From contig CBDCDZ010000004.1 in assembly GCA_965215565.1 (NCBI GenBank), positions 2,688,001 to 2,752,000 of the forward strand: 64,000 nucleotides of DNA, read 5' to 3'. The position numbers and the translations under genes are program-made. Below are positions 8,525-61,812 of this stretch, piece by piece. The stretch comes from Trueperaceae bacterium. GTDB taxonomy: Bacteria > Deinococcota > Deinococci > Deinococcales > Trueperaceae. Every line of letters begins with the position of its first letter. Position 1 is the stretch's first letter. The notes beneath the pieces are model-generated. The model saw only the letters and a list, made by a program, of their open reading frames with translations. It searched no databases and was not told the origin of the DNA.

Positions 8525-8657
8525 AGCAGGTTCCTTCGGAAGCTTCGCGCACTCAGGCGAAGCCTAGCGGAACTTCATCTGGTCACGAACGTGCTCACTT
8601 GAGAAAGCATCAATAAACTCGCACGTTTAGAGATGATGCCTGCGTGACACAATCTCA
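8525..8657 (-). mobile_element. 111-bp MITE-family copy with two micro-inserts
   Basis: AGCAGGT[20 nt]CTCA[22 nt]TCTGGTC...GATGATGCCTGCGTGA. Confidence 0.75.
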
Positions 8658-8993
8658 ATCTGACCTCTCAGTCGGCAACTCCGCCCCTTTCCACGCGAGG
8701 ATACCGCCCTCGACGTTAACGGCTTTGTAGCCGTTCTGGTTGAGAAACTGGACTGCTTGAGCGCTCCGCGCTCCACTGCGGCAGTGCACGACGACCTCTT
8801 CACTTTTATCAGCGGGGAGGTCGTCTTCGTAGCGTCGTGTGAATTCGGATAAGGGTACGAGCTTCGCGCCGGGGATGCGCTCCTCGTCGTACTCGTTTTG
8901 CTCGCGCACGTCGATAAAAAACGCGCCTTCGTCCACGCGGCGCTTGGCTTCTAAAACGTCGATTTCTGGCACTTGGTTCTGTTGGTTATCCAT
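8655..8993 (-). CDS. Rhodanese-like sulfurtransferase
   Basis: IDVRE, HCRSGARS, GGILAW; TATAGT 6 nt before ATG 8993. Confidence 0.92.
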   Translation of the reverse strand: MDNQQNQVPEIDVLEAKRRVDEGAFFIDVREQNEYDEERIPGAKLVPLSEFTRRYEDDLPADKSEEVVVHCRSGARSAQAVQFLNQNGYKAVNVEGGILAWKGAELPTERSD

Positions 8994-9090
8994 TTCGCTA
9001 CTATAGCGCTGGATAGATTTCTGGTGAGTTAGCCCCAGACCAAAAAAGCACCTCAGCGTGAATCTATTTGCAACCTCTCCCCGCTTTATG

Positions 9091-9201
9091 TAGCACTTCC
9101 AAAATATACTGAGACAGATGAGCGCAGATATCATCTCAGAATGTGCGTGCTAAATGGTGTTCTTTGCAGTAAGAGTGTTTCAAACCAGATGATACCTGCT
9201 A
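9091..9201 (+). mobile_element. 111-bp MITE-family copy (full length)
   Basis: TAGCACTTCC...GCAGATATCATC...CAAACCAGATGATACCTGCTA. Confidence 0.85.
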
Positions 9202-9250
9202 ATGAAAGCCTGAGACCAAACCTCACGTACGACTTCTTTAGACTGAAGAG

Positions 9251-9757
9251 GTGAACGATTCTACAGACCCCTATATCGAACGCCTTTTCAGCACGCTCGG
9301 AGACCGCGAACCGCTCACCGTTTTGGAGAGAACGCCCCGGCGCATCGAAGAACTCTACGAAGCCTTTGGCGAAGACGACTTAGAGCGCTCGTACGCGCCC
9401 GACAAGTGGAACGCGAAAGAGATTATCGCGCACCTAGCCGATGTGGAACTCGGGCTAGGCTTTCGCTTTCGGCAAGCTGTCGCAGAGGAGAACTATACGC
9501 CGCAGTCCTTTGACCAAGATAAGTGGGCGACGCGGTACGGGAAGCTCGAGCCCTCCCTAGCCGTCGAGACCTTCCGCGCCCTCCGCGCTTGGAACTTGGC
9601 ACTCTTCACTACCTTTGAGCTAATCGACTGGAACAAGCAAGTGAACTATCCCTTTGCGGGTGTAGATACCGTAGACGCGATGGTTCACCTTTTAGCAGGG
9701 CATGATCTCAATCACTTAGAGCAGCTAGAGACTATCACGCGGCTTTCGAAAAATTAG
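9251..9757 (+). CDS. DinB family protein
   Basis: KWNAKEIIAHLAD...GHDLNHLEQL; TAGACT 6 nt before GTG. Confidence 0.88.
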   Translation: MNDSTDPYIERLFSTLGDREPLTVLERTPRRIEELYEAFGEDDLERSYAPDKWNAKEIIAHLADVELGLGFRFRQAVAEENYTPQSFDQDKWATRYGKLEPSLAVETFRALRAWNLALFTTFELIDWNKQVNYPFAGVDTVDAMVHLLAGHDLNHLEQLETITRLSKN

Positions 9758-9854
9758 CTTGGGGAGAGGTTCGTAAATTTGACTACATACCTCCCCACCC
9801 CTTTCACTCTAAAATCTATAGTGGGTAGTAGACCATTTAAGAAAGAGGTAAAAA

Positions 9855-10286
9855 GTGGCAAGTATCGCGGTTTCAGGTTGGGGTTTAACGGTTTTGCGCG
9901 TTGTCGTGGGTATCGTCTTTTTAGCGCACGGGATTGACAAGTTTTTCATCACAGGTGTCGGTAACATCGCGGGCTTTTTCGGACAAATCGGCATTCCGCT
10001 CGCTGGGCTCTCCGCTTTTCTAGTCGCGGCTATTGAACTCGTCGGCGGCGCGGCGCTCATTGCGGGCTTTTTCACGCGCATCTTCGCGGTGCTCTTAGGC
10101 ATCATCACGCTCGTCGCGATGTTCCTCGTTCACGTGAGCAACGGCTTTTTCGCCTCGAGCGGTGGCATCGAACTCACCCTTATCTTAACGGCGGCGTGCG
10201 CCGCCCTGTTCCTCTCCGGCGCAGGCGAAGCGGCGGTGCAGCGTGACTCCGTGCCGACGCAAGACAGGGCGTCTGCAAGCGACTAA
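9855..10286 (+). CDS. DoxX family membrane protein
   Basis: LRVVVGIVFLAHGIDK, ELVGG, GGIE, GAG. Confidence 0.9.
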   Translation: MASIAVSGWGLTVLRVVVGIVFLAHGIDKFFITGVGNIAGFFGQIGIPLAGLSAFLVAAIELVGGAALIAGFFTRIFAVLLGIITLVAMFLVHVSNGFFASSGGIELTLILTAACAALFLSGAGEAAVQRDSVPTQDRASASD

Positions 10287-10385
10287 AAGAAAGAGAAAAG
10301 GGCTGAGGTGAAAGAGAAAAGTTTTTACTCTCTTTTCTCTTTCACCTTTCCTCTCAGTCCTCTCTTTCTCTACCTCACCTTCACG
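10286..10385. repeat. Purine-rich / pyrimidine-rich inverted short-repeat tract
   Basis: AAAGAGAAAAGG..GAGGTGAAAGAGAAAAG...CTTTTCTCTTTCACCTT..CTCTTTCTC. Confidence 0.6.
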
Positions 10386-10413
10386 CAACTCACTTCTATG
10401 TTATCTTCTCCCT

Positions 10414-10833
10414 ATGTCAATTGAACGCACCTACGCAATGGTTAAACCGGACGGTGTCAAGCGCGGTCTGGTCGGGGAAGTGGTGAAGCGGCTCGAGCAA
10501 AAAGGCTTCACCGTCGTCGGCATGAAACTGATGCAAATCAGTCAAGAAACTGCTGAGACGCACTACGGTGAGCACGAAGGCAAACCTTTTTTTGAGGACT
10601 TAGTCTCGTTCATCACGAGCGGTCCTGTTGTAGCGATGGTCGTTGAGGGCGAAAACGCCATCAGCGAGTGGCGCAAAATGATGGGCGCGACGAATCCCAA
10701 AGACGCCGAACTCGGCACGATTCGCGGTGACTACGCGACGACGATTGACGAGAACGTCGTGCACGGCTCGGACGCGCCTGCAACGGCGGAGCGCGAAATT
10801 GGTATCTTTTTTGAAGAGGATGAATTGCTTTAA
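10414..10833 (+). CDS. ndk: Nucleoside diphosphate kinase
   Basis: MVKPDGV, GTIRGD, NVVHGSD; TG-n-TATCTT 6 nt before ATG. Confidence 0.98.
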
Positions 10834-11012
10834 TTGCGAGCCCTTAACTTTTAGCTAAATACCAATAGCTAAGGGCTAGTTGCTTTTTTAGAGCCTTCCC
10901 GCACGTCTTTTGGTTCCTCACTTGGCCCCTGAGAGGTTGGGTGAGGTTCCTTTTTTTGTCACCTGAATTGTGTAGGATAAAACCCATACGGTGTACACGA
11001 AAGAGGTGGATT

Positions 11013-12176
11013 ATGCCCGGACTATCTGACCGAATCCAAAAACTCAAAGCGTCCTCGACGGTTGCCTTTAACACCAAAGCTAAAGAGATGAAGCGCCAAG
11101 GTACGGACGTCATCGCGATGACGGCGGGCGAGCCAGACTTTCAGCCACCCGAACACGTCTTCGCGGCAGCGCACGAGGCACTCGACAAGGGGCTCACGAA
11201 GTACACCCCCGCTGAGGGCATGGCAGAACTGCGCGAGGCGGTTTGTGCCAAGTTCGAGCGGGAGAACGACCTCTCGTACGCACCGGACCAAATCCTCGTG
11301 AGCACGGGCGGCAAGCAGGTTCTCTACAACGCATTCATGGCGATTTTGAACCCCGGCGATGAGGTCATCGTGCCTGCGCCCTATTGGGTTTCGTACCCTG
11401 CACAAGTTCAGCTCGCGGGTGGCGTCACCGTGCCTGTCATGACATGCCCGGAAGACGGCTTTGTCCCGAGTGTGGACGCGGTGCGCGAGGCGATTACCGA
11501 TAAAACGAAGGTCATCCTCATCAATTCGCCCTCGAACCCGACGGGCGCGGTCTATCCGCCGGAAGTCGTCAAAGGAATTGTCGAGTTGGCGGCTGAGCGT
11601 GACATCTGGGTTTTCGCTGACGACTTGTACGAGCACCTCGTCTACGAGGGTGAATTCACCTCTTGCGCCAAACTCGCTCAGGACAAGACGCTCGTCATTC
11701 ACGGCGCGAGCAAATCGTATGCGCTAACTGGCTGGCGCATCGGTTACGGGGCTGGTCCCAAAGACCTCATCAAAGCGATGAACCGCCTGCAGGGTCAGGT
11801 GACGAGCGGCGCGAACGCGGTGGCGCAGTATGCGGTAATTGCGGCGCTCAACGAGGTGGAGAAGACCAGGGAATTCATCGACATGACTAAAGAGGCGTAC
11901 ATGGAGCGGCGCGACGTGCTGGTTGAAGGGCTCAACAGCTTAGGGCTCAAAACGCCTAAGCCCAGAGGTGCCTTTTACGTGATGGCGGACCTCACGCCCA
12001 TTCACGAGGACGAGACCGAGGCGGCGATGACACTGCTCGAGCAAGCCCACGTCGGCGTCGTGCCAGGGACGGACTTCTTAGCGCCCGGACAGGCGCGGTT
12101 TTCGTATGCGACGAGTTTGGAGAATATCGAGCGGGCGTTGGAGCGGATTGAGAAGTTGCTGCGGGTGCAGGCTTAA
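11013..12176 (+). CDS. aspC: PLP-dependent class I/II aminotransferase (aspartate aminotransferase-like)
   Basis: GEPDF, NSPSNPTG, SKSYALTGWRIGY; start ATG 11013 after GAGG. Confidence 0.85.
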   Translation: MPGLSDRIQKLKASSTVAFNTKAKEMKRQGTDVIAMTAGEPDFQPPEHVFAAAHEALDKGLTKYTPAEGMAELREAVCAKFERENDLSYAPDQILVSTGGKQVLYNAFMAILNPGDEVIVPAPYWVSYPAQVQLAGGVTVPVMTCPEDGFVPSVDAVREAITDKTKVILINSPSNPTGAVYPPEVVKGIVELAAERDIWVFADDLYEHLVYEGEFTSCAKLAQDKTLVIHGASKSYALTGWRIGYGAGPKDLIKAMNRLQGQVTSGANAVAQYAVIAALNEVEKTREFIDMTKEAYMERRDVLVEGLNSLGLKTPKPRGAFYVMADLTPIHEDETEAAMTLLEQAHVGVVPGTDFLAPGQARFSYATSLENIERALERIEKLLRVQA

Positions 12177-12206
12177 ACAACCTTCCCTGAAAAGTCTTAC
12201 TCTGAA

Positions 12207-12250
12207 ATGCTTATGCTTGACACAAGCATAATAATGCTTTACATTAGCAT
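12207..12250 (+). promoter_or_regulatory. higBA sigma70 promoter with palindromic operator
   Basis: TTGACA 12217-12222, 17 nt, TACATT 12240-12245; perfect IR TTATGCTTG-ACA-CAAGCATAA over -35 and ATGCT-N7-AGCAT over -10. Confidence 0.8.
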
Positions 12251-12252
12251 CA

Positions 12253-12534
12253 GTGATTAAGTCGTTTGCTGACAAGGAGACTCGCAAGGTCTTCGTGGGT
12301 CAGCACTCGAGACGCATCCCTGTAGAGATTCAAGGAACGGCAAAGCGAAAGCTCAACATTCTCGATGCTGCGCCGAGTTTAGAAACCCTCCGCGTACCTC
12401 CTAGCAATCATCTCGAGAAGTTGAGCCGTGATCGCAAAGGTCAGTGGAGCATCCGTATCAATCAGCAGTGGCGCATCTGCTTCGCGTGGCAAGAGGGTGA
12501 CGCATATGGAGTTGAGATCGCTGACTATCATTAA
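12253..12534 (+). CDS. higB: HigB (RelE/ParE-family) toxin
   Basis: MIKSFADKET...PPSNHLEKL..SIRINQQWRICF..DYH. Confidence 0.93.
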   Translation: MIKSFADKETRKVFVGQHSRRIPVEIQGTAKRKLNILDAAPSLETLRVPPSNHLEKLSRDRKGQWSIRINQQWRICFAWQEGDAYGVEIADYH

Positions 12535-12546
12535 AGGAGCCTGACA

Positions 12547-12852
12547 ATGGAGCGAGATATTCCCCCTATTCATCCTGGTGAGGTACTTAAAGAGGATTTT
12601 TTAGACCCTTTGGGAATCACTCAATATCAACTCGCCAAAGCGACCAACATGCCCCAAGACCGCGTGAGTCACATTGTCAGAGGCAACCGCGCAATTACGG
12701 CGGACACGGCGTTACGTTTAGGACGCTTTTTCGGCGTTGAGCCGCAGTTCTGGCTCAATTTGCAAAGTCGTTACGATTTGGAAACGGCGGAGGATGTGTT
12801 GGCAGGAGATCTCGAGCAAGAGGTCACGCCCTTCGAAAATCTACCGAGATGA
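12547..12852 (+). CDS. higA: HigA antitoxin (HTH)
   Basis: PIHPGEVLKEDFL, ITADTALRLGRFFG, FWLNLQ; toxin-first order. Confidence 0.93.
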   Translation: MERDIPPIHPGEVLKEDFLDPLGITQYQLAKATNMPQDRVSHIVRGNRAITADTALRLGRFFGVEPQFWLNLQSRYDLETAEDVLAGDLEQEVTPFENLPR

Positions 12853-13469
12853 TTGACTCCGCCACCTTCGGCATCTTTTTCGCCGCCGCTTTCACCCTCG
12901 CCGTCATCCCAGGACCGGGAATGCTCTACGTCTTAGCGAGGACGGTACGGGGCGGCAGACGTGAAGGGATTCTCTCGACGCTCGGCACAGGTGTCGCGGG
13001 GCTTCTCCACACACTTGCGGCGGCATTGGGCATCTCGGCGATTTTAGCGACATCGGCGGTGGCGTTTGCCGTTATCAAGTGGCTGGGCGCAGCGTACCTC
13101 ATCTATCTTGGGGTGAGGATGATGCTCGAGAAACCCTCCGAAGCCGACATTCAGGTCAACACTGATTCAACCTCTTCGAAAGGTGCATGCGCCCAAGGCA
13201 TCTTAACCGAAGTCCTCAACCCAAAGACGGCGCTCTTCTTCCTCGCGTTTATTCCGCAGTTCATCAACCCGGCGGGGCACGTGTTCTTGCAGTTCGTGAC
13301 GCTCGGGTTTATCACCACGCTGCTGACGAGCGGGGCGGACCTCATCGTGGCGCTTGCGGCGGGGTCCTTGAGCGGTTTGCTCAGAAATCCGCGTGGGCGG
13401 AAGGTGCAGCGTGTGGCGTCGGGGGGCGCGCTGATTGGGCTTGGGGTGTATGTGGCGGTGGAGCGGTAG
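12849..13469 (+). CDS. LysE/RhtB family exporter
   Basis: PGPG, KWLGAAYLIYLG, LNPKTALFFLAFIPQF. Confidence 0.92.
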   Translation: MIDSATFGIFFAAAFTLAVIPGPGMLYVLARTVRGGRREGILSTLGTGVAGLLHTLAAALGISAILATSAVAFAVIKWLGAAYLIYLGVRMMLEKPSEADIQVNTDSTSSKGACAQGILTEVLNPKTALFFLAFIPQFINPAGHVFLQFVTLGFITTLLTSGADLIVALAAGSLSGLLRNPRGRKVQRVASGGALIGLGVYVAVER

Positions 13470-13657
13470 CGTGTAGCAGGCGAAACACTTACGTTTTGGG
13501 TGAAGAAACACATCAGTCCGTCTTCTTCTATCATCCCTCGGTGAAGCGTGTGAAAACTTTGGAAGAGGTTGTTCGAGATCTGTAGAGGGTTTGGCTTACG
13601 CAAATTCTGCCACGCCTCCAGGTATTGCTCTGAAAAATGAGGTATATAAGAGGTTAA

Positions 13658-16501
<2,844 letters not shown>

Positions 16502-16506
16502 AGCGG

Positions 16507-16605: not shown

Positions 16606-16639
16606 GGTGGCGTAGAGAAACGTGCGTCCGCGCTAATGA

Positions 16640-22540: not shown

Positions 22541-22651
22541 TAGCAGTTCCAAGACACACTGAGACAAAGTGTCGCAGGTATCATCACCGAATGTGTGTGC
22601 TTCACGATGTTCTCAAAAGTGCGGATGTCTCAAACCAGATGGTACCTGCTA
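22541..22651 (+). mobile_element. 111-bp MITE-family copy (full length)
   Basis: TAGCAGTTCC...GCAGGTATCATC...CAAACCAGATGGTACCTGCTA. Confidence 0.85.
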
Positions 22652-22740: not shown

Positions 22741-22851
22741 TAGCGGTTATCAGAAGTACTGAGCTTGAATCACGCAGACATCATCACCGAAAGTGCGTGC
22801 TAGTTGTTGTTCTATCATGTGAGATTGGCTCAAACCAGATGATATCTGCTA
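22741..22851 (+). mobile_element. 111-bp MITE-family copy (full length, TA-flanked)
   Basis: TA|TAGCGGTTATC...CAAACCAGATGATATCTGCTA|TA. Confidence 0.88.
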
Positions 22852-26579: not shown

Positions 26580-26690
26580 AGCAATGAGTTGAAAGCAATC
26601 CAGTCAAGCTGGTGCGCGTTAGCCTCCGAAGGAACGAACGGTGAGCAATGAGTTTTTGGTTTTTACTCGTTACTCATTGCTCGTTGCTTT
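26580..26690. repeat. (GCAATGA)-type inverted heptamer repeat with ~36-nt insert
   Basis: AGTTGAAAGCAAT[insert]GAACGGTGAGCAATGAGTTTTTGGTTTTTACTCGTTACTCATTGCTC; same family as 1568-1658. Confidence 0.75.
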
Positions 26691-26694
26691 TTCC

Positions 26695-27303
26695 TTACGG
26701 TACTCGCTTCACCTCTTTGTCAACGATGGTGATGTCCGGCTTGGTAGACATGTTGGCTGAAGACGTAGCGGTGCTGGGCGTCCCGGACCCGGAGGAGGGT
26801 AGGCTCTTTCTTAGAGAGGTTTCGACTTGGGCGATGTCGGCGGCGAGTTCGTTGCGCATCAGGAGGACGCGCTCTTCTAAGCGCTCGACTTGGGCGCGTT
26901 CGTGCGCCTCGATGTGGCTGGTGTGCTCGCTGACGACGGTGCGAAAGCCGCTGTCGCTCTCAGACATACGGGTTTCTAAGCCGTCGAGTTTCTTGCCTAT
27001 GCGCTCCTCGAGCCCCGCGAGGTCTTCGTTGCGGCGTCTGTCGAGTTGGGCGCGTAAATGGTCATTCTGCTTCTCTAGGTGGGTGATCTGCCTAAGTTGT
27101 CCCGCCCGCCTAAAGAGTGAGAGCAACAAAAAGAGCAAACACGCGGCGAGAATCGCGCCGATGAGGAAGAGCCCTAGCGGAAGCTGGACCTGGAAAAAGA
27201 GGAAGTTGATGGGCAAGTAGGTGGATAGCGCCCCCCAGTTAAACGCGGCAAAGATAACCGTCAAGACGATAAGCGCGGTGACGAGGGTTCCTTTTGACTT
27301 CAT
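26695..27303 (-). CDS. LapA-domain membrane protein with coiled coil
   Basis: TM, FNW..INFLF..QLPLGL, TM, coiled coil; GGAAGGAG RBS. Confidence 0.75.
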   Translation of the reverse strand: MKSKGTLVTALIVLTVIFAAFNWGALSTYLPINFLFFQVQLPLGLFLIGAILAACLLFLLLSLFRRAGQLRQITHLEKQNDHLRAQLDRRRNEDLAGLEERIGKKLDGLETRMSESDSGFRTVVSEHTSHIEAHERAQVERLEERVLLMRNELAADIAQVETSLRKSLPSSGSGTPSTATSSANMSTKPDITIVDKEVKRVP

Positions 27304-27358: not shown

Positions 27359-27519
27359 CAGCAGTTCCACGCTTCGCCGCACTAAGTGAGGGCGTTGCTT
27401 CGCAGAACTTCGTACACTATTTCTTCAAGGCTTGCGCGTCACTTCGCTCCCACTGGCGACTTCGTGAACGCATCCGCTCGTACGTTTCATTGCTGTAGCA
27501 ATGAAACGTGGAAATGCTA
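27359..27519. mobile_element. Degenerate composite MITE-related element filled with hairpin micro-inserts
   Basis: Ends CAGCAGTTCCACG / CGTGGAAATGCTA; AGCAATGAAACGTGGAAATGCTA matches 41881-41903; contains GTTGCTTCGCAGAACTTCGT. Confidence 0.55.
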
Positions 27520-32283: not shown

Positions 32284-32539
32284 TAACGGTTCCAAGACAT
32301 ACTGAGACAGATGAGCGCTTTCCGTAGGCTTTCGCCAAAGGCGGGAGACGGAAGTTTTGGCAACGCTAAAGGCGTCATCACCAAACGTGCGTGCTACGTT
32401 TCTGAAAGCTGCTCCGCGGAAGCGAGCAGTCTGAAAGCCCGCAGGGACGCAAGTTTGCTGCCTAGTAACGCCACTTCGAACAGTGAGAACATTTCAAACT
32501 AGCTCCGAACGTTAGTGAGACAGACTTTGATACCTGCTA
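32284..32539 (+). mobile_element. MITE-family copy expanded by three insert blocks
   Basis: Collinear with 9091-9201 except for inserts after GAGCGC, after GTGCTA and at 32503-32527. Confidence 0.8.
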
Positions 32540-32542
32540 CTA

Positions 32543-32653
32543 CAGCGGTTAGCAGAAGTACTGAGCTTGAATCACGCAGGTATCATCTCATGATGTGCGT
32601 GCTGCACAGTGTTTTATCTCGTGAGATTGGCTCAAACCAGATGATACCTGCTA
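32543..32653 (+). mobile_element. 111-bp MITE-family copy (full length), tandem to previous
   Basis: TA|CAGCGGTTAGC...GCAGGTATCATC...GATGATACCTGCTA|TA. Confidence 0.88.
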
Positions 32654-32847
32654 TACATAAACTCCGTTATGGAATTTTGCTTTCCTGGAGGGAAACTTCG
32701 TAACCAGCAAACGCTTCGGGTTGGCTAGCTGGACCTTATCTGAAACAAGGGGTTGAAACCCCTTATCGTCGCGTGAAGACAGCAGAAGGAGGGCGGCATT
32801 CGACTTTTACGTTTCGCCGCGTTCTATCCTCGCTGTTCTATCCTCAC

Positions 32848-34559: not shown

Positions 34560-36450
34560 TTGCCGCCCCCTCTTCCATAAGCAGAATAACCCCCCGCAAA
34601 TCGTTGTCCAGCGCGTCGAAGCTCGTACAGGTCACGCGGCACTGAAATGTTCTGCCGCGCCGATTGAGCGCCTTTAATACGACCTCTTCGTGTTTGGACC
34701 TATCCGTTAGACAAGCCCGTACGGGCGCTTTTAGGGCGTCCACATCGACGCCAATATCCAAGGTGAAGAGCGAACGCCCCGCCACCTCGTCGGCGCGTAG
34801 CCCCCACAGGTCTTCGGCGCGGGCGTTCCAGATATAGATATTGAACTGATAGTCCAGGACGATGACCGCCGCGCGCAAACTGCCTAAAATGGACTCCAAA
34901 AAGATGTTTAAGCGGTCCACCTCTTCGGTGCGGCGGCGCATCTCTTCGTTCATCGTCTCAAGCTCTTCGTTAGTGGACTGCATCTCCTCGTTCATCGTTT
35001 CAAGCTCTTCGTTAGTGCTCTGCATCTCTTCGTTGGTGGTCTCCAACTCCTCCACCGTAGACTGAAGCTCTTCGTTGGTGGTCTCTAGCTCTTCGTTGGT
35101 GGACTGAAGCTCTTCGTAGGCGGTCTCTAGCTCCGTGTTGGACAGCTCGAGGCTGTTCTGTAAGCGCTTGTGTACGCTCACGTCGCGAAAGAGGATGCTG
35201 ACGCCTAGCGCTTTTATCCCGTTGCCAGAGCCGTTGCCGCCATTGACCAGCGGGACGATCTGCACGTCCAAGTGGAGCACGTCGCCTTCGGAAGCGTACT
35301 CGAGGCTGCCCAAGTGAATAAGCTCGCGCGTCTCCAGCACGCTGTCGATATGGGTGCGCAGTTCGGTGGGCTGATAGGAGAGCCTGAGATCTTGAAAGTT
35401 GCGCCCGATGTCCTCGTCGGAGATATCAAAGAGGGTGCGGGCGCGGGTATTGGCGAGCGCGAGCCGCCCTCTGGCGTCCACCACAATTTGCGCTTCGGGC
35501 GACACGTTAAAAGCAACCTCGCGCAGCCGCACCTCTTGCGCCACCCACCGCCCCCCCTCTTCGCCGCCCGCTTGGGTCAGCGTGAGGAGGCGTTCGCGCA
35601 AGCTCCCACTTTCGGACTTCGTGAAGAGCCGGTGCTTGAGGCTGAGCGGCTTAAAGCGCTCCGAGCGCGAGAGCATCGTCTCGGCTTTGCCCAAAAAGAG
35701 CGTGCCGCCCTCCTTGAGCGCGAAGTGAAAACGCGCCAAAACGCGGCTCTGCAGTTCGCGGTTAAAGTACATCAGCGTGTTGCGGCAGACCAAGAGGTCG
35801 AGCTGCGAGATGGGCGCGTCGCTCACTAAGTTGTGCCGCCCGAAGATCACAGAGCGGCGCAAGTCGCTCCGAAAGACGTAGCTGCCCGAGGCGTACTCGA
35901 AGTAGCGCTCCAAGAGGTCCGCGTCCACATCCGCGACCCTATCCGCGCTATAGACTCCCCCCCGCGCACGCACGAGGTCTTCCTCGTCGATATCGGTGGC
36001 GTAAATCTTGACCTGTTTGCGAAAGGCGTTCGCGCCCAGCGCCTCGGCGAGCAAGATGGCGAGCGTGTACGCCTCTTCGCCCGTCGCGCAGCCCGCACTC
36101 CAGGCGCGAATGGGCCCATCCGCCTTTTGCGCCACAAGCGGCGCGATGACCTCTTCGTCAAGCGCGCGCCACGCCGCCTCGTTGCGAAAAAAAGAGGTCA
36201 CGTTAATCAGGACGGTATTGAAGAGCAAATCGAACTCTTCGGGGTGGACCTCCAAATAGTCGAGGTAGTCACTGAACGATTCCACCGCGACGACTTGCAT
36301 CCGCCGCTCGAAGCGCCGCATCAAAGAGGTGCGCTTGTAGCCCGTAAAGTCGATGCTGCGCTTGACGTTTAAGTACTCGAGCAAGTCCTCAAACGCCGCT
36401 CTATCCTGGGCTTGCACCTTATCGTTTTCTGGACCGTCAAAGGCGCTCAC
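34546..36450 (-). CDS. cheR: CheR-type methyltransferase with PAS-coiled coil-PAS extension
   Basis: INVTSFFR, WSAGCATGEEAY, ATDID, CRNTLMYF; (EELQSTN/EELETTN)n. Confidence 0.93.
   Translation of the reverse strand: MSAFDGPENDKVQAQDRAAFEDLLEYLNVKRSIDFTGYKRTSLMRRFERRMQVVAVESFSDYLDYLEVHPEEFDLLFNTVLINVTSFFRNEAAWRALDEEVIAPLVAQKADGPIRAWSAGCATGEEAYTLAILLAEALGANAFRKQVKIYATDIDEEDLVRARGGVYSADRVADVDADLLERYFEYASGSYVFRSDLRRSVIFGRHNLVSDAPISQLDLLVCRNTLMYFNRELQSRVLARFHFALKEGGTLFLGKAETMLSRSERFKPLSLKHRLFTKSESGSLRERLLTLTQAGGEEGGRWVAQEVRLREVAFNVSPEAQIVVDARGRLALANTRARTLFDISDEDIGRNFQDLRLSYQPTELRTHIDSVLETRELIHLGSLEYASEGDVLHLDVQIVPLVNGGNGSGNGIKALGVSILFRDVSVHKRLQNSLELSNTELETAYEELQSTNEELETTNEELQSTVEELETTNEEMQSTNEELETMNEEMQSTNEELETMNEEMRRRTEEVDRLNIFLESILGSLRAAVIVLDYQFNIYIWNARAEDLWGLRADEVAGRSLFTLDIGVDVDALKAPVRACLTDRSKHEEVVLKALNRRGRTFQCRVTCTSFDALDNDLRGVILLMEEGAANGRA
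34940..35137 (-). repeat. Coding 21-bp tandem repeat (heptads) in cheR
   Basis: About nine AAC GAA GAG (CT/ATG).. units encoding NEELQST/NEELETT/NEEMQST. Confidence 0.85.
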
Positions 36451-38971: not shown

Positions 38972-39050
38972 TAGCGAGCAATGAGCAACGAGCAGTGAGT
39001 GAAGGGCTTTTGATTTTCACTCACTGCTCGTTGCTCGGAACTCATTGCTC
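38972..39050. repeat. (GCAATGA)-type inverted heptamer repeat
   Basis: GAGCAATGAGCAACGAGCAGTGAGTGAA...TTCACTCACTGCTCGTTGCTC..CTCATTGCTC. Confidence 0.8.
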
Positions 39051-39216
39051 TTTTGAAGACCCTTCGCAAGCTCAACGCCCTACTCGCGCGAGCAGGATGA
39101 CAGCCTGCTCCTTCTGTTCGTAAATACTCCACATTCAAAACCTGTCCAACGTGCCACAAAACCCGTCTATCCGTCACTTTTCGCCTCCATTTTGTGCCTC
39201 AGTGTACGCCAACACC

Positions 39217-41636: not shown

Positions 41637-41903
41637 TAGCAGGTATCATCTGGTCAGCGACACTCTCACTGTGCGCGTTGCTGACTAGCACGCACATTGT
41701 GACAGCAGGTTCCTTCGGAAGCTTCGCGCAATCAAAGTCTGTCTCACTGGCGTTCGGAGCTGGTCAGCTACACTTTCACTAAAAAGAACATCGCCTAGCA
41801 CGCACTTAATTGTGATGAAATTCCGCTATTGCTGCGCAATGAGATCTGCGAAGAAGTGTTGCTTCGCATGACTTCGTCCAAGCAATGATAAGTGGAACTG
41901 CTA
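41637..41903 (-). mobile_element. Truncated MITE copy (41637-41702) followed by a second copy (41703-41903) with four micro-inserts
   Basis: TAGCAGGTATCATCTGGTC..GCACGCACATT then CAGCAGGT[20]ATCA[25]CTGGTC..GATGA[25]ATCTGCG..[~21]..GGAACTGCTA. Confidence 0.8.
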
Positions 41904-47802: not shown

Positions 47803-47964
47803 TTCAACCTCCGGCTGTTTTATCCCTACTCGGTACACGCTTGGTACACGGTGGTGAAAAGCAGCGCTTCTATACTCAAAAATAAACCCTGGACATCCGA
47901 ATCAGCTCTCGAACGACGCCCAGGACTCGCCCGACGAAGCGGGTTTTTCGAAACTCGACTACAT

Positions 47965-48054
47965 CAACCGAGTTTGAATTGTGCAGCTATAATCTCACGC
48001 AAGTCAATCGAAGCTCTTTCGAGCGAAAACGCTTGTGACCAGACAATACCTGCT
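47965..48054 (+). mobile_element. Diverged MITE-family copy abutting tRNA-Ala 3' end
   Basis: CCGAGTTTGAATTGTGCAGCTATAATC...GACCAGACAATACCTGCT. Confidence 0.6.
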
Positions 48055-48057
48055 TGG

Positions 48058-49033: not shown

Positions 49034-49144
49034 TAGCGGTTATCAGAAGTACTGAGTTTGAATCACGCAGGCACCATCCCCTAAAGTGCGTGCTGAACGA
49101 TGTTTTATCTCGTGAGATTGGCTCAAACCAGATGATACCTGCTA
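49034..49144 (+). mobile_element. 111-bp MITE-family copy (full length, TA-flanked)
   Basis: TA|TAGCGGTTATC...CAAACCAGATGATACCTGCTA|TA. Confidence 0.88.
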
Positions 49145-49291: not shown

Positions 49292-49543
49292 TAACAAGTA
49301 TCATCTGGTTTGAGTGTACGTAAGTTTGTCCCGGTTACACCGTTTTCGCGTCTGCGAAAGGGAAACTTCGTAAGCGAAGCAACGCTCTCACTGTAAAAAA
49401 CACCGTTTCCTAGCGGAAAACTGCGCAACTAGCACGCACATTCGAAGATGAAATCCCGCAACGGCAGGGCGGCCTGCCCGTAACGCTAGTCCTTGCGGAC
49501 AGAGATCTGCGGAACTCCGTCTCAGTATATTTTGGAAGTGCTA
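49292..49543 (-). mobile_element. MITE-family copy expanded by three insert blocks, one doubly nested
   Basis: Collinear with the reverse complement of 9091-9201 (shares GTCTCAGTATATTTTGGAAGTGCTA) plus inserts. Confidence 0.82.
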
Positions 49544-51249: not shown

Positions 51250-51251
51250 GT

Positions 51252-53288: not shown

Positions 53289-53336
53289 TTTGATAGGGGG
53301 CTCGAGCCTTGGAATCAGTCGAGCCTCACCTCTTCT

Positions 53337-55220: not shown

Positions 55221-55308
55221 AGTTGGGGTCTCCTAGAGGTTACTAAGTCGCCCTACGCTAACACGACTTTGAGAGTAACTAGCGTGAAGTTTTCGGGGCG
55301 TTGAGCCG

Positions 55309-55677
55309 TTAGGACGGCGCGCCTTCCTCCACTCGGCGCGGCTCCACGCCTTCGGGTGTGACGATCCACGCCACGCCCGGCACGTTTGTGGAGGTGAAGC
55401 GGAGCGTATAAGAGTCTTCAGTTGTCGGCTCCGCGAGCACCCAGCGCACGCCCTGGGGCACGTCTAAGTTGATCAGCACATTCGCGGTGTAGACGCCCTC
55501 TTCGAGTTTCACCAGCTCCATGCGGTGAAAGGCGGCGGTGGCGACGCGCTCGACCTCTTGGGCGGCGGGGCTCTCGAGGGTCAGCCCCGTTTCCGGGTTC
55601 GTCGTCGCCTCTTGCGTGCTCGGCGCACAAGCCGCGAGGAGAAGTAAAGAAGCTGAAAGTATAAGAAGTCTATTCAT
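55309..55677 (-). CDS. Lipoprotein of unknown function
   Basis: Lipobox LLLAACAP; TATGAT 6 nt before ATG. Confidence 0.8.
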   Translation of the reverse strand: MNRLLILSASLLLLAACAPSTQEATTNPETGLTLESPAAQEVERVATAAFHRMELVKLEEGVYTANVLINLDVPQGVRWVLAEPTTEDSYTLRFTSTNVPGVAWIVTPEGVEPRRVEEGAPS

Positions 55678-55709
55678 AGCTCAATCATAGCGGGTTTTAA
55701 TGAAAAATA

Positions 55710-55760
55710 AGCAATGAGAAACGAGCAATGAGCAAAAACCAAAGTCTTTCTACTCATTGC
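55710..55760. repeat. (GCAATGA)-type heptamer repeat overlapping a stop codon
   Basis: AGCAATGAGAAACGAGCAATGAGC...ACTCATTGCT. Confidence 0.65.
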
Positions 55761-56401
55761 TGCATCGGCGCAAGCCCCAGCCGCACGATATACCTCTGCG
55801 CGCCGCGCTTCTGCTGGTAGCGCTTTAAGAGGTCGAACATCTCGCGCTGCAACGCTTTGGCGTCCTCAAAGTCGAGGTACACGGCGTCGCGCCAAGCGGA
55901 GAGGACGGCGGGGTCGTCGGAGGCTAGCGTTGTGTGATTTTGCTCGGGCGTGAGCGCCATCTGCACCTGCAAGCGTCCCCTCGCGTCCCGGTAGATGCGC
56001 GTGCCGTACGTCTCCACCCTTTCCAGCCGCGCGCGCACCACATTACGCCGCAAGAGGTCTTGCCAGTAGGCGTCGCGCTCCGCCAAAGCCGCCTCCAAAG
56101 ACTCCGCCGACGTCGCCTCGAAGGGGACGAAAAAGCCATCCGCTTTACTTCTATAAACTTTAACCGCGCGCCCCTGGCGCGGCTCTTCGCGCACAACCTC
56201 GACGAGACCGAGCCTCAGAAAGCGCCGAACCCGCGATAAGACCGTGTTCGGCTTCTCGCCCGTCTCGCGCGCCACCTCTTTAACGGTGACGTCGCGAGCC
56301 AAAAACGGCTCCAACTGTCGCAACGTGTGAGGGTTGGTCAGAACGGCGGCGGCTTCGGGGTTGTGAACGCTCAAGATGCTGGGTGATTTTTGCTCTTCCA
56401 T
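55754..56401 (-). CDS. Winged-helix (ArsR-like) DNA-binding protein
   Basis: TVKEVARETG..NTVL.RVRR..LGLVEV...R.GRAVKVY. Confidence 0.8.
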   Translation of the reverse strand: MEEQKSPSILSVHNPEAAAVLTNPHTLRQLEPFLARDVTVKEVARETGEKPNTVLSRVRRFLRLGLVEVVREEPRQGRAVKVYRSKADGFFVPFEATSAESLEAALAERDAYWQDLLRRNVVRARLERVETYGTRIYRDARGRLQVQMALTPEQNHTTLASDDPAVLSAWRDAVYLDFEDAKALQREMFDLLKRYQQKRGAQRYIVRLGLAPMQQ

Positions 56402-56442
56402 ATCATCTAGCTTACATCCAAAATAAGATACGGAGGCGAGAG

Positions 56443-57144
56443 GTGAATCTCACTGAGGAGAAAATCAAACAGCAGATCGAATACTACCGCGCTAGGGCGT
56501 CCGAATACGATGAGTGGTTCCTGCGGCGAGGGCGTTACGACAGGGGCGAAGTGCATAAAACGCAGTGGTTTGAAGAGGTGGCGCAACTCCAAAAGGTGTT
56601 AGAGGAATTTAAGCCTAAGGGCGACGTGCTCGAGCTTGCGTGCGGTACGGGTTGGTGGACGCAACATTTAGCCCCTTACGCCGAGACGCTCACGGCGGTG
56701 GATGCGTCCGAAGAGGTGTTAGCGCTAAACCGTCAGCGCGTCCAGTCCGACAGGGCGGAGTACGTCCAAGCTGACCTCTTCACCTGGCTAGGGCAAGCTG
56801 AGGGGAGGTTCGACACGGTTTTCTTCAGTTTTTGGCTCTCGCACGTGCCGCCTGAACGCTTCGACCTCTTCTGGGATTCTCTACATAACTGGCTGAATCC
56901 CGGCGGGCGCATCTTTCTGATTGATTCGCTCTACGAAGCCCAGAGTACGGCTAAAGACCAGTCTTTGAGAGGTAGGGATGATGAGGTTGTCACGCGCCGC
57001 CTTAATAATGGGCAGACCTTTGACATCGTCAAGGTGTTTTATCAGCCTGAGGAGTTGGAGGGGAGGCTCGAGTCCTTGGGCTGGAGCGCGGACGTTTCGC
57101 GAACTACGCAGTTTTTTCTTTATGCCACCGCAGAGCCCAAATGA
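56443..57144 (+). CDS. Class I SAM-dependent methyltransferase
   Basis: VLELACGTG.WT, VDAS, FWLSHVP, L.PGG. Confidence 0.92.
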   Translation: MNLTEEKIKQQIEYYRARASEYDEWFLRRGRYDRGEVHKTQWFEEVAQLQKVLEEFKPKGDVLELACGTGWWTQHLAPYAETLTAVDASEEVLALNRQRVQSDRAEYVQADLFTWLGQAEGRFDTVFFSFWLSHVPPERFDLFWDSLHNWLNPGGRIFLIDSLYEAQSTAKDQSLRGRDDEVVTRRLNNGQTFDIVKVFYQPEELEGRLESLGWSADVSRTTQFFLYATAEPK

Positions 57145-57551
57145 TAAACGCTAAATCTATCAGAGAAAAACTCTCAGCTTCCAACTTGCACGCTGCTCGT
57201 CTGGCTATACAAGCGCTCGATGATGGCGGTCAAATTGAAACAGTAGAGAGCGAAATAGATTGTGAATCGCTCCTACGAACCTATCGTATTCGCCTAGAAC
57301 ATCTAAAGCAGTTTGACTCACCTCACGCTCGAGACCTTAGTAAAACCACAGCAGAATTTGTCGCTAACTTAGAATCTTATCAAGGAAGCAAAGTCCATTC
57401 TGCTACCATTCAAGGCAACAGAGCGCGAGAATATTTGCTTTTTCTAACTCAAGACCTCAGTGTTATTGGCTGCATACAGACAGTATCCAAGCTCAAGTTG
57501 AGCGAAGATGAATGGCTCGAGTTGTGGGGGTTGAACCCGGAAGAAGCGTAA
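57141..57551 (+). CDS. Lower-GC hypothetical protein
   Basis: ATGA overlap with the previous gene; no recognisable motif. Confidence 0.65.
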   Translation: MINAKSIREKLSASNLHAARLAIQALDDGGQIETVESEIDCESLLRTYRIRLEHLKQFDSPHARDLSKTTAEFVANLESYQGSKVHSATIQGNRAREYLLFLTQDLSVIGCIQTVSKLKLSEDEWLELWGLNPEEA

Positions 57552-57690
57552 AACCTGTGTAAAGTGAAGAACTTCACCACCAAGTCAAGTGTCAAAGTCG
57601 CGGTAAGATGGATAAAACTAAGACAGGTAAACACCGCAAATCCCAGTTCTCTACCTCATCAAACTGACTCAAGAAGCAAGGAGTTTCTAC

Positions 57691-60426
57691 ATGGCTGACC
57701 TCAAACCCAAAAACTCATTCGACACGAGAGAAACCTTTGACACCGGCTCGGGCGAAGCGTACCTCTACCGCCTCTCCAAACTCAAAGAGGACGGGCACGG
57801 CGACGTGGACAAGCTGCCCTTTTCGATCAAGGTGCTCCTAGAGTCGCTGCTGCGCAACGAAAACGGCTACGACGTGACCGAGGAGCACATCAAGGGTCTG
57901 GCTGCCTACAACGCGAAAGACCCCGCGAAAGAGGAGATTCCCTTTAAGCCCGCGCGCGTTATCTTGCAGGACTTCACGGGCGTGCCTGCTGTTGTTGACT
58001 TAGCCGCGCTCCGCAGCGCGATGGACCGCTTGGGCGGTGACCCCAAGCTCATCAACCCGCAGATTCCGGTGGACTTAGTCATCGACCACTCGGTTCAGGT
58101 AGACGAGTACGACTCGCCGCTTGCGCTCGCCACGAACGCCACCATCGAGTTCGAGCGCAACCGCGAGCGCTACGAGTTCTTGCGTTGGGGACAAGCCGCG
58201 TTCGAGAACTTTGGCGTGGTGCCGCCCGCCTCGGGCATCGTCCACCAGGTCAATTTGGAGTACATTGCGAAGGGTGTACAGAGCGCACCCCTAGAGGGTA
58301 AAGAGGTCGTCTACCCCGACTCCTTGGTCGGCACGGACTCGCACACCACCATGATCAACGGGCTCGGCGTGGTCGGTTGGGGCGTCGGCGGCATCGAGGC
58401 GGAAGCGGTCATGCTGGGTCAGCCCATCTATATGCTCACGCCCGAAGTCGTCGGCTTCAAGGTCACGGGTAAGCTGCCCGAAGGCTCCACCGCGACGGAC
58501 TTGGCTCTAGTCGTCACGCAGATGCTCCGCCAAAAAGGAGTGGTGGGCAAATTCGTCGAGTTCTACGGCTCCGGGCTCTCCTCCATGACACTGCCAGACC
58601 GCGCCACGATTGCGAACATGGCTCCCGAGTACGGCGCGACGATGGGCTTTTTCCCGGTGGACGAGGAGACCCTGCGCTACCTCCGTCAGACCGGACGCTT
58701 GGACGACGAGGTCGAAGCGGTGGAGCGTTACAGCAAGGCGCAAGGGCTCTTCCGCACCGACGACACGCCCGACCCGGAGTTTTTGAACACTTTAGCGCTT
58801 GACCTCTCCACCGTCCAGCCTTCGTTAGCCGGGCCGAAACGCCCCCAAGACCGCATCCTGCTTTCAGATATGAAAAAGACCTTCCAAGAGGACCTGCGCA
58901 AACCTGCTGTAGAGCGCGGTTTCAACCTCTCGGAAGAGGCATTGGAGAACACTGGCACGCTCACTATGAAAGACCAAGAGGTCACGCTCCGTCACGGCGA
59001 CGTGGTCATCGCCGCCATCACAAGCTGCACGAACACCTCGAACCCGTCTGTGATGCTCGCGGCGGGCTTAGTGGCGAAAAAGGCGGCGGAGGCGGGCTTG
59101 AAGGTCAAGCCTTATGTCAAAACCTCGCTCGCGCCCGGCTCGAAAGTAGTGACGGAATACTTGAACGACACCGGGCTCATGCCGCACTTGGAGCAGATGG
59201 GCTTCTACTTGGTCGGCTACGGCTGCACCACCTGTATCGGCAACTCGGGACCGCTGCCTGAGCCTGTCGTGGAAGCCATCCAAGAGGGCGACTTGGTCGC
59301 GGCGAGCGTGCTCTCGGGCAACCGCAATTTCGAGGGACGTATCAACCCGCACGTCAAAGCCAACTACCTCGCCTCGCCCCCTCTTGTGGTGGCGTATGCG
59401 ATTGCAGGGACGGTGGATATCGACCTCTCTACCGAACCACTCGGTCGAGGTAAGGATGGTCAAGATGTCTACCTAGCCGACATCTGGCCCTCCTACGCCG
59501 ACATCACCGAAGGCATGAACGCCGCGATGAAGCCCGAGACCTTCAAGAAGATGTACGACGGCATCGAGCAGTCGAACGAGGCGTGGAACGAGATTCCGGT
59601 CAAGGGCGGCGAGCTGTTCCAGTGGGAAGAAGAGAGCACCTACATTCAAGAGCCCCCCTTCTTCGTCGGCATGAGCCCGGAGCCCGAGCCTATCCAACCG
59701 ATCGAGGACGCCCGCGTGCTCGTCAAGGTGGGCGATTCGGTCACGACGGACCACATCTCGCCAGCGGGCGCGATCGCGAAAGATTCACCGGCGGGCGAAT
59801 ACCTGATGTCCAAAGACGTCGCGCCCAAAGACTTCAACTCTTACGGCTCTCGGCGCGGCAACGACCGCGTGATGACGCGCGGCACCTTTGCGAATATTCG
59901 CCTCAAGAACCAGATGGCTCCCGGTACGGAGGGCGGCTACACGACACACCTGCCAACGGATGAGGTCATGAGCATCTATGAGGCGTCCTTGCGCTACGGC
60001 GGCGCGGAAACGCCCACCATCGTGCTCGCAGGGAACGACTACGGGATGGGCTCATCGCGCGACTGGGCCGCGAAAGGCACCTTCCTCTTGGGCGCGAAAG
60101 CCGTCATCGCTGAGTCTTACGAGCGTATCCACCGCAGCAACCTCATTGGCATGGGCGTGTTGCCGCTTCAGTTCGCAGACGGGGAGAACGCTGAGTCGCT
60201 AGGGCTCACGGGCAAGGAGCACTTCACCATCCATATCGACGATGACCTCAAACCGAGTCAAGAGGTTGTAGTGGACGTGGTGAAAGAGGACGGCGGCGAG
60301 GTGCAATTCACCGCGCTGTGCCGCCTGGACACACCCGTTGAAGTGGACTACTACCGCAACGGCGGGATTTTGCAGACCGTCTTACGTTCGATTTTGCAGA
60401 GTGCGGAGGAAACGGCGAAGGCGTAA
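57691..60426 (+). CDS. acnA: Aconitate hydratase A
   Basis: [40 protein letters not shown]. Confidence 0.99.
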
Positions 60427-60520
60427 CAGCAGGTATCATCTGGTCACAGAAGCTCCCCATCTATGAGGCGGTGCTCAACATGTAACTGCAAGAGATGATA
60501 TCTGCGGGGCTCAATCTCAG
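60427..60520 (-). mobile_element. MITE-family copy starting at the acnA stop, ending at a REP-like palindrome
   Basis: CAGCAGGTATCATCTGGTC...GAGATGATATCTGCG..CTCAG. Confidence 0.78.
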
Positions 60521-60549
60521 GAGGGGCGATTCACGAGTCGCCCCTCCTG
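60518..60549. repeat. REP-like palindrome
   Basis: CAGGAGGGGCGATTCACGAGTCGCCCCTCCTG, similar to 16507-16537. Confidence 0.7.
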
Positions 60550-60646
60550 CTTGTTTGTGAAAATTTCGCGGCGAGAGGCTGTGTGGGTCTTTCATACTTG
60601 AGAGAGGTACGTTTTTGTACCTAAATCTCGAGCTTAGGAACCTACT

Positions 60647-61225
60647 ATGATAAGACCTCTTGTTGCCGCGTCCGCTTTTCTTCTCCTGCTTGCCTCTTGC
60701 GCTCCGTCGGTAAGTTCTTCTAATTACGCAGAACAAATTTCTGAAAACCACTATCGTTACATTTCTACGCTCGGCATAAAAGAACCTAAACGGAATGTCG
60801 TGCCTGTGCGCGCAGGTACGACGCTTCTCTTCGAAGACGCATTCGCAATTAGAGGTATTATTCTTGCTAAAGCGCCCGTAAGGAATAAGAGGAGCGATAC
60901 TCTTATCCACAACACAACAAACGAGTACGAACAAAAACGGACGAAAGCACCTAGAGGGTGGGGAGCGCAGCTCAAAGACTCCCGGACGGTAGTTGATTTC
61001 AATTCAACTGTGAAAGCACCATCTGGTTGGCTTGAAGGACCTTATGAGGTATATATGGGTGGCGGTTCTAAAATAGAGAAAAACGGCACAATCATTTATA
61101 GCCATATCATCGAAGTTTCTGTACCAAAAGAGGCGCAGCCTGGACGGTATCCAGTTGAGGTTAGGTACCGTGGAAAAGGTAACAGAGAAGATAGGTCCAC
61201 TAACTTCATCGTCGAAGTCCTCTAA
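60647..61225 (+). CDS. Lower-GC lipoprotein of unknown function
   Basis: Lipobox LLLASCAP; Ig-like C-terminus VP..AQPGRY.V. Confidence 0.75.
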   Translation: MIRPLVAASAFLLLLASCAPSVSSSNYAEQISENHYRYISTLGIKEPKRNVVPVRAGTTLLFEDAFAIRGIILAKAPVRNKRSDTLIHNTTNEYEQKRTKAPRGWGAQLKDSRTVVDFNSTVKAPSGWLEGPYEVYMGGGSKIEKNGTIIYSHIIEVSVPKEAQPGRYPVEVRYRGKGNREDRSTNFIVEVL

Positions 61226-61226
61226 T

Positions 61227-61682
61227 TCACTCCCGGTGATACGGATGCCCTGCGCGAATCGTCTCCAAACGGTAAAGTTGCTCTAACAAAATAAGCCTCG
61301 AGAGTTCGTGCGGCAGCGTCAGCTTGGATAAACTCCACGACTCGTTCACGGCTCCTTTAACCTCACCACTCAGCCCTTCCGCCCCGCCGATGAGCAAACT
61401 AATTTGACCAACCGATTGATTTTCCAAGGTTGTAATGCGCTCGGCAAGCTCGGTCGAGCGCCTTTCTTTGCCGCGCTCGTCCAGGGCGATGAGGTAGCCG
61501 CTCGAGGTTCTAAGCAGCGCCTCACCCTCTTGCGCCACCACCTCTTCGGCGCGTCCCTTACCCTCTTTGAGTTCCACCACGTCGACTTTGGCGTACTTCT
61601 CCAACCGCCCCAAAAAGTGCCGACACCCCTCACGGACGAAGCCGCGTTTGAGGTGTCCGATGGTGACGAGTTGGTATTTCAT
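61227..61682 (-). CDS. rlmH: 23S rRNA pseudouridine-1915 N3-methyltransferase
   Basis: LDERGK, IGGAEG, SLSKLTLPHEL.R..LLEQLYR, GHPYHRE. Confidence 0.97.
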   Translation of the reverse strand: MKYQLVTIGHLKRGFVREGCRHFLGRLEKYAKVDVVELKEGKGRAEEVVAQEGEALLRTSSGYLIALDERGKERRSTELAERITTLENQSVGQISLLIGGAEGLSGEVKGAVNESWSLSKLTLPHELSRLILLEQLYRLETIRAGHPYHRE

Positions 61683-61683
61683 A

Positions 61684-61812
61684 CAGCAGGTATACCCGCT
61701 CCGCAGGGCACTTTCATCTGGTCAGAAACACTCTCACCACAAAGAACACCGACTGGCACGCACATTTTAGGATAATATTTGCGCTCAAATGTTCTAAGTG
61801 GAGTTGCCGATA
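61684..61812 (-). mobile_element. MITE-family copy with a 21-nt insert, between thyX and rlmH
   Basis: CAGCAGGTA[TACCCGCTCCGCAGGGCACTT]TCATCTGGTC...GCACGCACATT..GATAATATTTGCG. Confidence 0.78.

Follow-up and report, generated by a model that had tools for sequence, protein, structure and literature searches.

Elhai et al. reportedly described, in 2008, small dispersed repeats (SDRs) as small, site-specific elements that nest in one another and lie in heptamer arrays and mini-transposons, and are said to have favoured an RNA route for their movement. How 21-nt elements move has been open since that description. SDR1-8 of Nostocaceae are covered in PMC4390886, PMC5861425, PMC3116915 and PMC2884548, and PMC5861425 gives none outside Nostocaceae among cyanobacteria rich in the highly iterated palindrome HIP1. 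Here, a 64,000-nt stretch of a Trueperaceae bacterium chromosome (the window, G000:C4:2688001-2752000) was analysed for short inserts shared among copies of a 111-nt MITE (miniature inverted-repeat transposable element). The source genome, G000, is 4.49 Mb and 99.99% complete; two sister genomes with the same micro-elements, G001 and G002, are 96-97% complete. On balance, and with modest confidence, the inserts were taken to be SDR-type micro-elements of 17-27 nt with precise family-specific sites, likely inserted independently many times as single-stranded DNA.

Micro-insert families and sites

After nested copies had been peeled away, nine atomic families were distinguished, with about 500 micro-inserts of 17-27 nt genome-wide, nearly all intergenic. 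Pattern counts in G000 were G 140, C 103, D 98, K 51, H 40, B 33, A 26, J 12 and F 5; the same patterns on the reversed genome gave G 7, D 15, A 0, K 0, C 3, B 5, J 0, H 1 and F 2 (33 in total). The pattern for a further insert, M, was too short (135 matches against 76 in the control) and was not counted in the total. Exact searches of the genome gave 3 copies of A, 18 of long C, 7 of the D found at 41858 and 22 of a 14-mer. From these counts and the reversed-genome control, the inserts are not chance matches.

Insert clusters were located at backbone sites 8, 9, 11, 23, 47-50, 68, 75-76 and 88. At MITE sites, 307 of the 331 inserts of 17-28 nt measured 21-25 nt; K is 17-19 nt and H 27 nt. Sites are fixed and family-specific, and target duplication is absent. 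D, A, G and K follow a common grammar of two small hairpins in tandem, entering precisely after ..GT or ..CT. Entry of B, C and J costs one T, which is replaced, while F and H enter precisely, the insertion point of H being ambiguous by a GC dinucleotide.

The original prediction had placed shared hairpin inserts at fixed MITE sites in the window. A, in two identical copies, and B were recovered at the positions it gave, as was the 21-nt insert now called F (minus strand), and its pair at 27394 and 41858 is D (Table 1). Of its two C sites, 41819-41843 held as described, and 49452-49504 is a 26-nt C with a 27-nt H nested in it. The motif that it reported near 32690 and 49360 is present at both, the first a G-type insert in a non-MITE host and the second nested inside D. 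Two further refinements were made: a reversed C adjoins A at 8552-8575, and 41637-41903 is a truncated MITE with a second MITE directly after it. The left-arm states on which the prediction relied recur genome-wide, with A only in 14 copies, B only in 26, both in 4 and neither in 318.

Nesting was seen as G in G, G in D, K in G, H in C, C in C and J in D, and is deepest at 49315-49381, with three levels. Targets depend on sequence: at site 23 no D occurred in the commonest GAGCCA subfamily junctions, and at site 88 D was confined to the MITE subfamily having GTGT there. Sites 23/88 and 8/68/75 are mirror positions on the inverted arms, and such sites could exchange inserts by intramolecular conversion.

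Outside the MITE, inserts lie in two heptamer-array hosts and two insertion sequences, in at least four further repeats and in other micro-elements, and empty alleles are known for many of the non-MITE hosts. The M insert in a heptamer array of the window belongs to this system too. Three long reading frames (G000:C4:1277682, 1769156 and 1932576) contain J, and two of the three are part of a 965-bp element present in two copies. A Mutator-like insertion sequence, likewise in two copies (C4:1334482 and 4037151), has H in its non-coding end, and its G001 counterpart is empty.

The host repeat

The 111-nt host carries terminal inverted repeats of 6 bp and, internally, a long inverted repeat; of 116 empty seed copies, 98 have a length of exactly 111 nt. 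Its short inverted termini, the duplication of its target, the existence of both filled and empty sites and its many copies class it as a MITE. A profile search of G000 recovered 547 copies or fragments; 407 were full, and 255 of these carry an insert of at least 12 nt. Where MITE sites are empty in G001, six of the seven clean ones imply an AT-rich duplication of 2-3 nt. Extra DNA in G001 was found for only 11 of 56 flank pairs in an orthologue search, and few MITE copies are therefore shared. Among 30 relatives the MITE was matched in G001, G002 and one other genus; it was not found in 12 genomes of other families. No autonomous partner with the same ends was present among 46 multi-copy segments of G000, and a 7-copy element considered for that role was rejected, being an IS110 inserted into the MITE. 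Three G000 copies hold at site 48 a 103-104-nt AT-rich element, itself MITE-like, and an uncatalogued mini-hairpin module lies in a variant MITE at window 27445-27472.

Probable independent gains

A tree was built from the masked MITE backbone (71 columns, poorly resolved), with 57 inserts unclassified. Parsimony changes over filled copies were 13/13 for A, 12/12 for left-arm C, 23/24 for B, 68/88 for D23, 72/102 for G48, 102/125 for C68, 39/46 for G75 and 16/21 for D88. The inserts thus need many gains on this tree. The changes were only modestly below those for shuffled labels, lying under the shuffled mean for six families. Insert state varied within 7 of 11 groups of identical masked backbone.

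Identical inserts were also found in unrelated surroundings. One G variant occurs in the spacer of D and in three other hosts with unrelated flanks; H occurs in C, in the Mutator-like insertion sequence and in two further hosts; J is shared by the MITE, D and further hosts. G000 was compared with 1.6 of the 4.6 Mb of G001 for clean indels of 14-80 nt. Among 62 such indels, 7 could be recognised as elements whose orthologous site is empty, and a further 1-2 are likely cases. They run in both directions, and a single MITE copy common to the two genomes accounts for two of them; a double hairpin of 24 nt, in single-copy intergenic DNA, is also among the indels.

Local mismatch of filled copies against that of the nearest empty neighbour was 0.93 vs 1.55 at D23, 1.93 vs 2.83 at G48, 1.65 vs 1.85 at C68 and 1.49 vs 1.17 at G75. 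Filled copies therefore show no excess of mismatch beside the insert and no sign of conversion tracts. Taken together, homoplasy, unrelated hosts, empty orthologues and the lack of co-conversion tracts make gene conversion alone unlikely, and the micro-elements very probably insert independently. Of the two readings offered originally, site-specific micro-elements gained support, and gene conversion among MITE copies failed for identical inserts in non-homologous flanks. Single gains on the backbone tree and confinement to MITE lineages, the two outcomes that had been named as fatal to the prediction, did not appear. Gene conversion may spread inserts secondarily, from arm to arm as well, and filled MITEs are probably also copied whole.

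Fold of the double-hairpin families

The CTTCG/TTCG motif noticed originally is present and is really C-T-N-C-G, with all four bases at N. Of the 282 C-TNC-G motifs counted across 245 distinct inserts, 264 can be extended as stems in triloop register, equivalent to c(GNA)g on the opposite strand. The loops in this register were TTC (137), TGC (68), TAC (35) and TCC (24), GAA being commonest on the opposite strand. Such triloops were carried by 176 of 426 hairpins with stems of 3 or more, against 15 of 159 in shuffles. In the variable hairpin of 27 distinct 21-mers, 69 of 81 cells were paired (shuffled mean 44.8, maximum 57, 2000 shuffles). The pairs alternate among A-T, G-C, C-G and T-A, and the closing pair is C-G in 25 of 27. 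A strict double-hairpin scan of the genome gave 308 matches against 18 in the control; a loose scan was just 1.6-1.7-fold enriched.

Extra-stable DNA mini-hairpins are described in PMC13037366 for GNA triloops only, GAA being the most stable and the RNA versions much weaker; a C:G closing pair is preferred according to PMC3201870. The c(GNA)g loops and compensatory changes of the four families thus bear the mark of selection for stability as DNA, and suggest that the intermediate is single-stranded DNA. One stem ends flush with the 3' end of the GNA strand, and in 16 of 27 the 5' T pairs beside it; the strand would in this way form a nicked dumbbell with abutting ends.

A micro-element may accordingly be pictured as travelling as single-stranded DNA folded to a nicked dumbbell, each half of it a c(GNA)g mini-hairpin, a fold that would bring the two ends together in space and shield the oligonucleotide. 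A trans-acting nick-and-join enzyme would then insert it, and a short target of 2-5 nt plus extrusion of the host's own hairpin would pick the site. Targets on the TNC strand would be mostly ..GT| or ..CT| for D/A/G/K, ..GC| for H and A/C-T for B/C/J. Filled MITEs could afterwards be copied whole by the MITE's own transposase.

Candidate enzymes and distribution

Retroelements (group II intron, retron, diversity-generating retroelement) found no backing: RVT_1 (PF00078), the one reverse transcriptase family searched, had no match in G000, the one genome searched. Y1 (PF01797) had no match in G001 or G002, both carriers of micro-elements, and the single Y1 domain of G000 is RAYT-like (RAYT, repetitive extragenic palindrome (REP)-associated tyrosine transposase) and adjoins a different palindrome. 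A Y1/RAYT mobiliser was rejected, since there is no co-distribution with the elements and two of three carriers have no match. The four-helix-bundle, GIY-YIG and GxxExxY families were rejected likewise, as they do not track the elements across 30 family genomes (G001 and G002 excluded); PF05635 was present in 7 of 31 family genomes, PF01541 in 31 of 31 and PF13366 in 0 of 31.

The Y1 HUH domain of G000 lies in frame within a 1322-aa Eco57I-type restriction-modification protein (type IIG methyltransferase; G000:C4:3784710-3788675, minus strand), and is followed there by two translated copies of a palindrome with about 55 copies in the genome. Free-standing relatives of the domain are about 60% identical, and a similar long frame is present in G014. 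Window 32744-32765 is a copy of the same REP-like palindrome, and another flanks a small GIY-YIG gene at C4:1652548.

Seven IS110 copies with an identical 312-aa recombinase (DEDD and Transposase_20 domains) each lie in a different MITE copy, in the left arm, at a TC core (Table 1). One decayed copy and one 56% identical relative are additionally present. The 5' non-coding end contains guides that match the MITE target and the circle junction (sequence match; predicted fold z -2.2). The element is thus predicted to be a bridge-RNA element aimed at the MITE, which would explain its own site only.

G tails numbered 86, 35 and 34 in G000, G001 and G002, and 0-4 in 78 other family genomes. The exact 19-base G pattern had 5 matches in genome contigs, one in Trueperaceae and four at about the chance expectation. 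The D pattern had 60 matches at 59 loci in metagenome contigs, a mixture of chance matches and repeat-embedded copies that gives no evidence of range. One metagenome assembly has a related MITE with the same D at the same site, at six loci (L145, L156, L159, L172, L183 and L194).

Weighing the explanations

Several observations count against independent insertion as folded single-stranded DNA. B, C, J, F and H lie outside the two-hairpin grammar, and in 54 of 426 hairpins the GNA loop is on the opposite strand. With the DNA parameters of ViennaRNA the two strands differ little in energy, and most closed circles come out unfavourable. Because the variants are related, neither the covariation nor the loop counts can be treated as independent events. 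The search for a mobilising enzyme, which covered RVT_1, Y1 and three repeat-associated families, found none. Leading/lagging bias was not seen against cumulative skew, local skew or dnaA/parS replichores (TNC strand leading in 162 of 308), in a test of low power as only 48% of genes are co-oriented; K alone was skewed (36 of 51). Transcription-direction bias was not seen. The 71-column tree resolves poorly, and presence/absence data leave gain and precise loss indistinguishable. The distribution of insert variants follows MITE subfamilies in part, and some of the spread has therefore been vertical or by conversion.

That partial tracking, the six families with changes under the shuffled mean, the large number of similar MITE copies and the mirrored arm sites would all suit a history in which each insert arose once and then spread only by gene conversion or recombination among MITE copies and arms. 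This was considered improbable, because identical inserts turn up where the host flanks share no homology, and also inside other elements, co-conversion tracts were not seen, and the origin of nine families with constrained loops and stems is left unexplained. Movement as RNA, with transcripts of filled repeats templating or reverse-splicing into the target, was judged unlikely, less so than spread by conversion. The precise entry of B, C and J with a one-base change fits templated repair, GNRA/UNCG-like tetraloops occur among the variants (24 of 41 C-TNCG-G motifs are in tetraloop register), and the lack of replication strand bias agrees with it. Against RNA stand the dominance of the triloop register, GNA triloops being a DNA-specific stabiliser (PMC13037366), the lack of RVT_1 in G000, a transcription direction unrelated to element orientation, and D23 and G48, which are oppositely oriented in one MITE yet occur together in 45 copies. 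Of the weight placed on independent insertion, the larger part goes to a DNA rather than an RNA intermediate.

It is very improbable that the MITE-targeting IS110 bridge recombinase inserts the micro-elements as well. Its seven left-arm copies lie within 3 nt of the A, B, C, F and J sites, its guides match there, and H has GC on either side in the manner of a core dinucleotide. The insert offsets differ from the IS110 core, however, and the guides do not match sites 23, 48, 75 and 88 or the heptamer hosts. The donor guide matches the IS junction only, a 21-bp duplex circle is too small, and no homologue was present in the 1.6 Mb of G001 searched. Least probable of all was that the inserts form de novo where replication slips or switches template at hairpins: every site is within a structured repeat and the inserts are themselves small palindromes, but they are not copies of the sequence next to them, the same 20-27-mers are found again in unrelated hosts, and look-alikes exist in other organisms. 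Independent insertion of SDR-type elements as single-stranded DNA remained the preferred explanation.

Features of the window and genome context

Table 1. Micro-elements and host repeats, with positions in the window; the last row gives positions in the source genome
Feature	Position	Strand	Remarks
G in third host repeat	235..257	-	empty alleles in G000 and G001
Older MITE copy	8525..8678	+	left arm with A and reversed C
Micro-element A, 20 nt	8532..8551	+	double mini-hairpin; GNA loops on - strand
Micro-element C, reversed	8552..8575	-	in left arm; one base replaced
MITE, empty, 111 nt	9091..9201	-	
MITE, old, empty	13657..13764	+	
MITE, empty	22541..22651	-	
MITE, empty	22741..22851	-	
Insert M, 22 nt	26600..26642	-	in heptamer-repeat array; nested 21-nt double mini-hairpin 26613-26633
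Micro-element D, 21 nt	27396..27416	+	in variant MITE; empty allele of variant elsewhere in genome
Filled MITE	32284..32539	-	B; G with two nested K; second G with nested K
G at backbone site 75-76	32319..32369	-	nested K-type element
G at backbone site 48	32398..32467	-	two nested K (32430-32446, 32401-32429)
Micro-element B	32503..32527	-	one T replaced
MITE, empty	32543..32653	-	
G in different host repeat	32682..32703	+	close variant of host has empty alleles
Truncated MITE, then filled MITE	41637..41903	+	A, B, C, D; no MITE at this site in G001
Micro-element A	41711..41730	+	
Micro-element B	41735..41759	+	
Micro-element C	41819..41843	+	one T replaced
Micro-element D	41860..41880	+	backbone site 88
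MITE, old, empty	47948..48055	-	common to G001
MITE, empty	49034..49144	-	
Filled MITE	49292..49543	+	D with two further nested elements, G, C with nested H
D at backbone site 23	49315..49381	+	GNA loops on +; holds G holding G-type element
G at backbone site 48-49	49407..49428	+	
Micro-element C	49452..49504	+	with nested H
Micro-element H, 27 nt	49460..49486	+	single hairpin; occurs outside MITE too
MITE, old, empty	60427..60543	+	
Older MITE copy	61684..61809	+	with F
Micro-element F, 21 nt	61693..61713	-	
IS110 copies	G000:C4 638769-, 681682-, 1227066-, 1291047-, 2530254-, 3106148+, 4135944+		

The window lies about 20 kb away from dnaA and parS among ordinary housekeeping genes, and Rfam gave one tRNA and nothing else. 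Several MITE-to-flank junctions are backed by sequencing-run contigs; contig joints that skip inserts have sides of at most 30 nt, and other copies may be their source. Counted from the dnaA/parS region, 48% of called genes in G000:C4 are co-oriented with replication and GC skew flips often; the chromosome is heavily rearranged, possibly through these repeats. No similar plasmid DNA was found.

Heptamer inverted arrays lie at window 922-985, 1568-1623, 10290-10353, 26600-26697, 38977-39053 and 55708-55765 and resemble cyanobacterial short tandem repeats. The genome has 142 such arrays, and related ones flank its single four-helix-bundle gene at C4:1308119. A third repeat family (window 135-330, minus strand) has its own nested hairpin modules; G000 has at least 7 copies of it, and G001 has additional ones. 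The 21-nt tandem repeat at 34900-35154 is an ordinary coiled-coil coding repeat of a CheR-PAS gene.

Comparison with known systems

For the movement of such elements, G000 offers nine families totalling about 500 copies, a host with hundreds of alleles, both filled and empty, and empty sites at orthologous positions. Its c(GNA)g loops, extra-stable in DNA only, are predicted to mark a single-stranded DNA intermediate; if this is true, a natural scarless pathway of oligonucleotide insertion would exist in at least two phyla. A literature search that missed many journals gave no account of such elements in Truepera, nor of a GNA or single-stranded DNA reading.

IS110 bridge-RNA elements that target REPs are described in PMC11208160. 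The IS110 found here is alike in targeting a MITE arm with matching guides, and differs from the micro-elements in being a 1.1-kb autonomous element with a duplicated core. REP/RAYT and IS200/IS605 elements, as covered in PMC6006769, have hairpin-bearing single-stranded DNA, no target duplication and a short adjoining target in common with the micro-elements, which are far shorter and have no GTAG-type foot and no strand bias. No cognate Y1 HUH transposase flanked by the repeat was found in the carriers. The mosaic SNRs (small non-coding repeats) of D. radiodurans, from the same phylum, are likewise dispersed, non-coding and modular; the accessible part of PMC1978522 states neither mobility nor a link to GNA hairpins for the modules, and the likeness is one of description.

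By description too, the double-hairpin elements and GC clusters of mitochondria in fungi and algae and the internal inserts of ERIC (enterobacterial repetitive intergenic consensus) are tiny non-coding hairpins at preferred sites, with no known mobiliser. They differ in being organellar or, in the case of ERIC inserts (about 70 nt), longer.

The 350-kb Nostoc plasmid pNPUN01 gave 13 double-triloop matches against 8 in a shuffle, and 10 of the 13 start directly after GCGAT/GCAAT, that is, at split HIP1-like sites; the architecture is therefore common to two phyla. A class of minimal DNA transposons that crosses phyla, in which single-stranded dumbbells of 17-27 nt with c(GNA)g caps are excised or copied and then joined to short targets by a conserved host enzyme and not by a known transposase, is a tentative extension that we regard as rather doubtful. 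The same doubt attaches to its further part, a second class that swaps one base on entry, with the cyanobacterial SDRs as one branch.

SDRs, and above all SDR5 in HIP1, are the nearest known counterpart. With SDRs the micro-elements have in common a size of 20-27 nt, precise site-specific insertion and hosts among heptamer arrays and mini-transposons; they also nest, as SDRs reportedly do, and D/A/G/K show compensatory structure. They differ in phylum (Trueperaceae, Deinococcota), in having as main host one 111-nt MITE with eight sites, in lacking a HIP1 target, in being almost all intergenic and in the replacement of a base by three families. SDR5 enters between bases 3 and 4 of HIP1, whereas the targets here are GT|, CT|, GC| and A/C-T. 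The micro-elements are thus SDR-like and not SDR5; the kind itself is already known, and what is new is the occurrence of SDR-type elements in a new phylum, Deinococcota.

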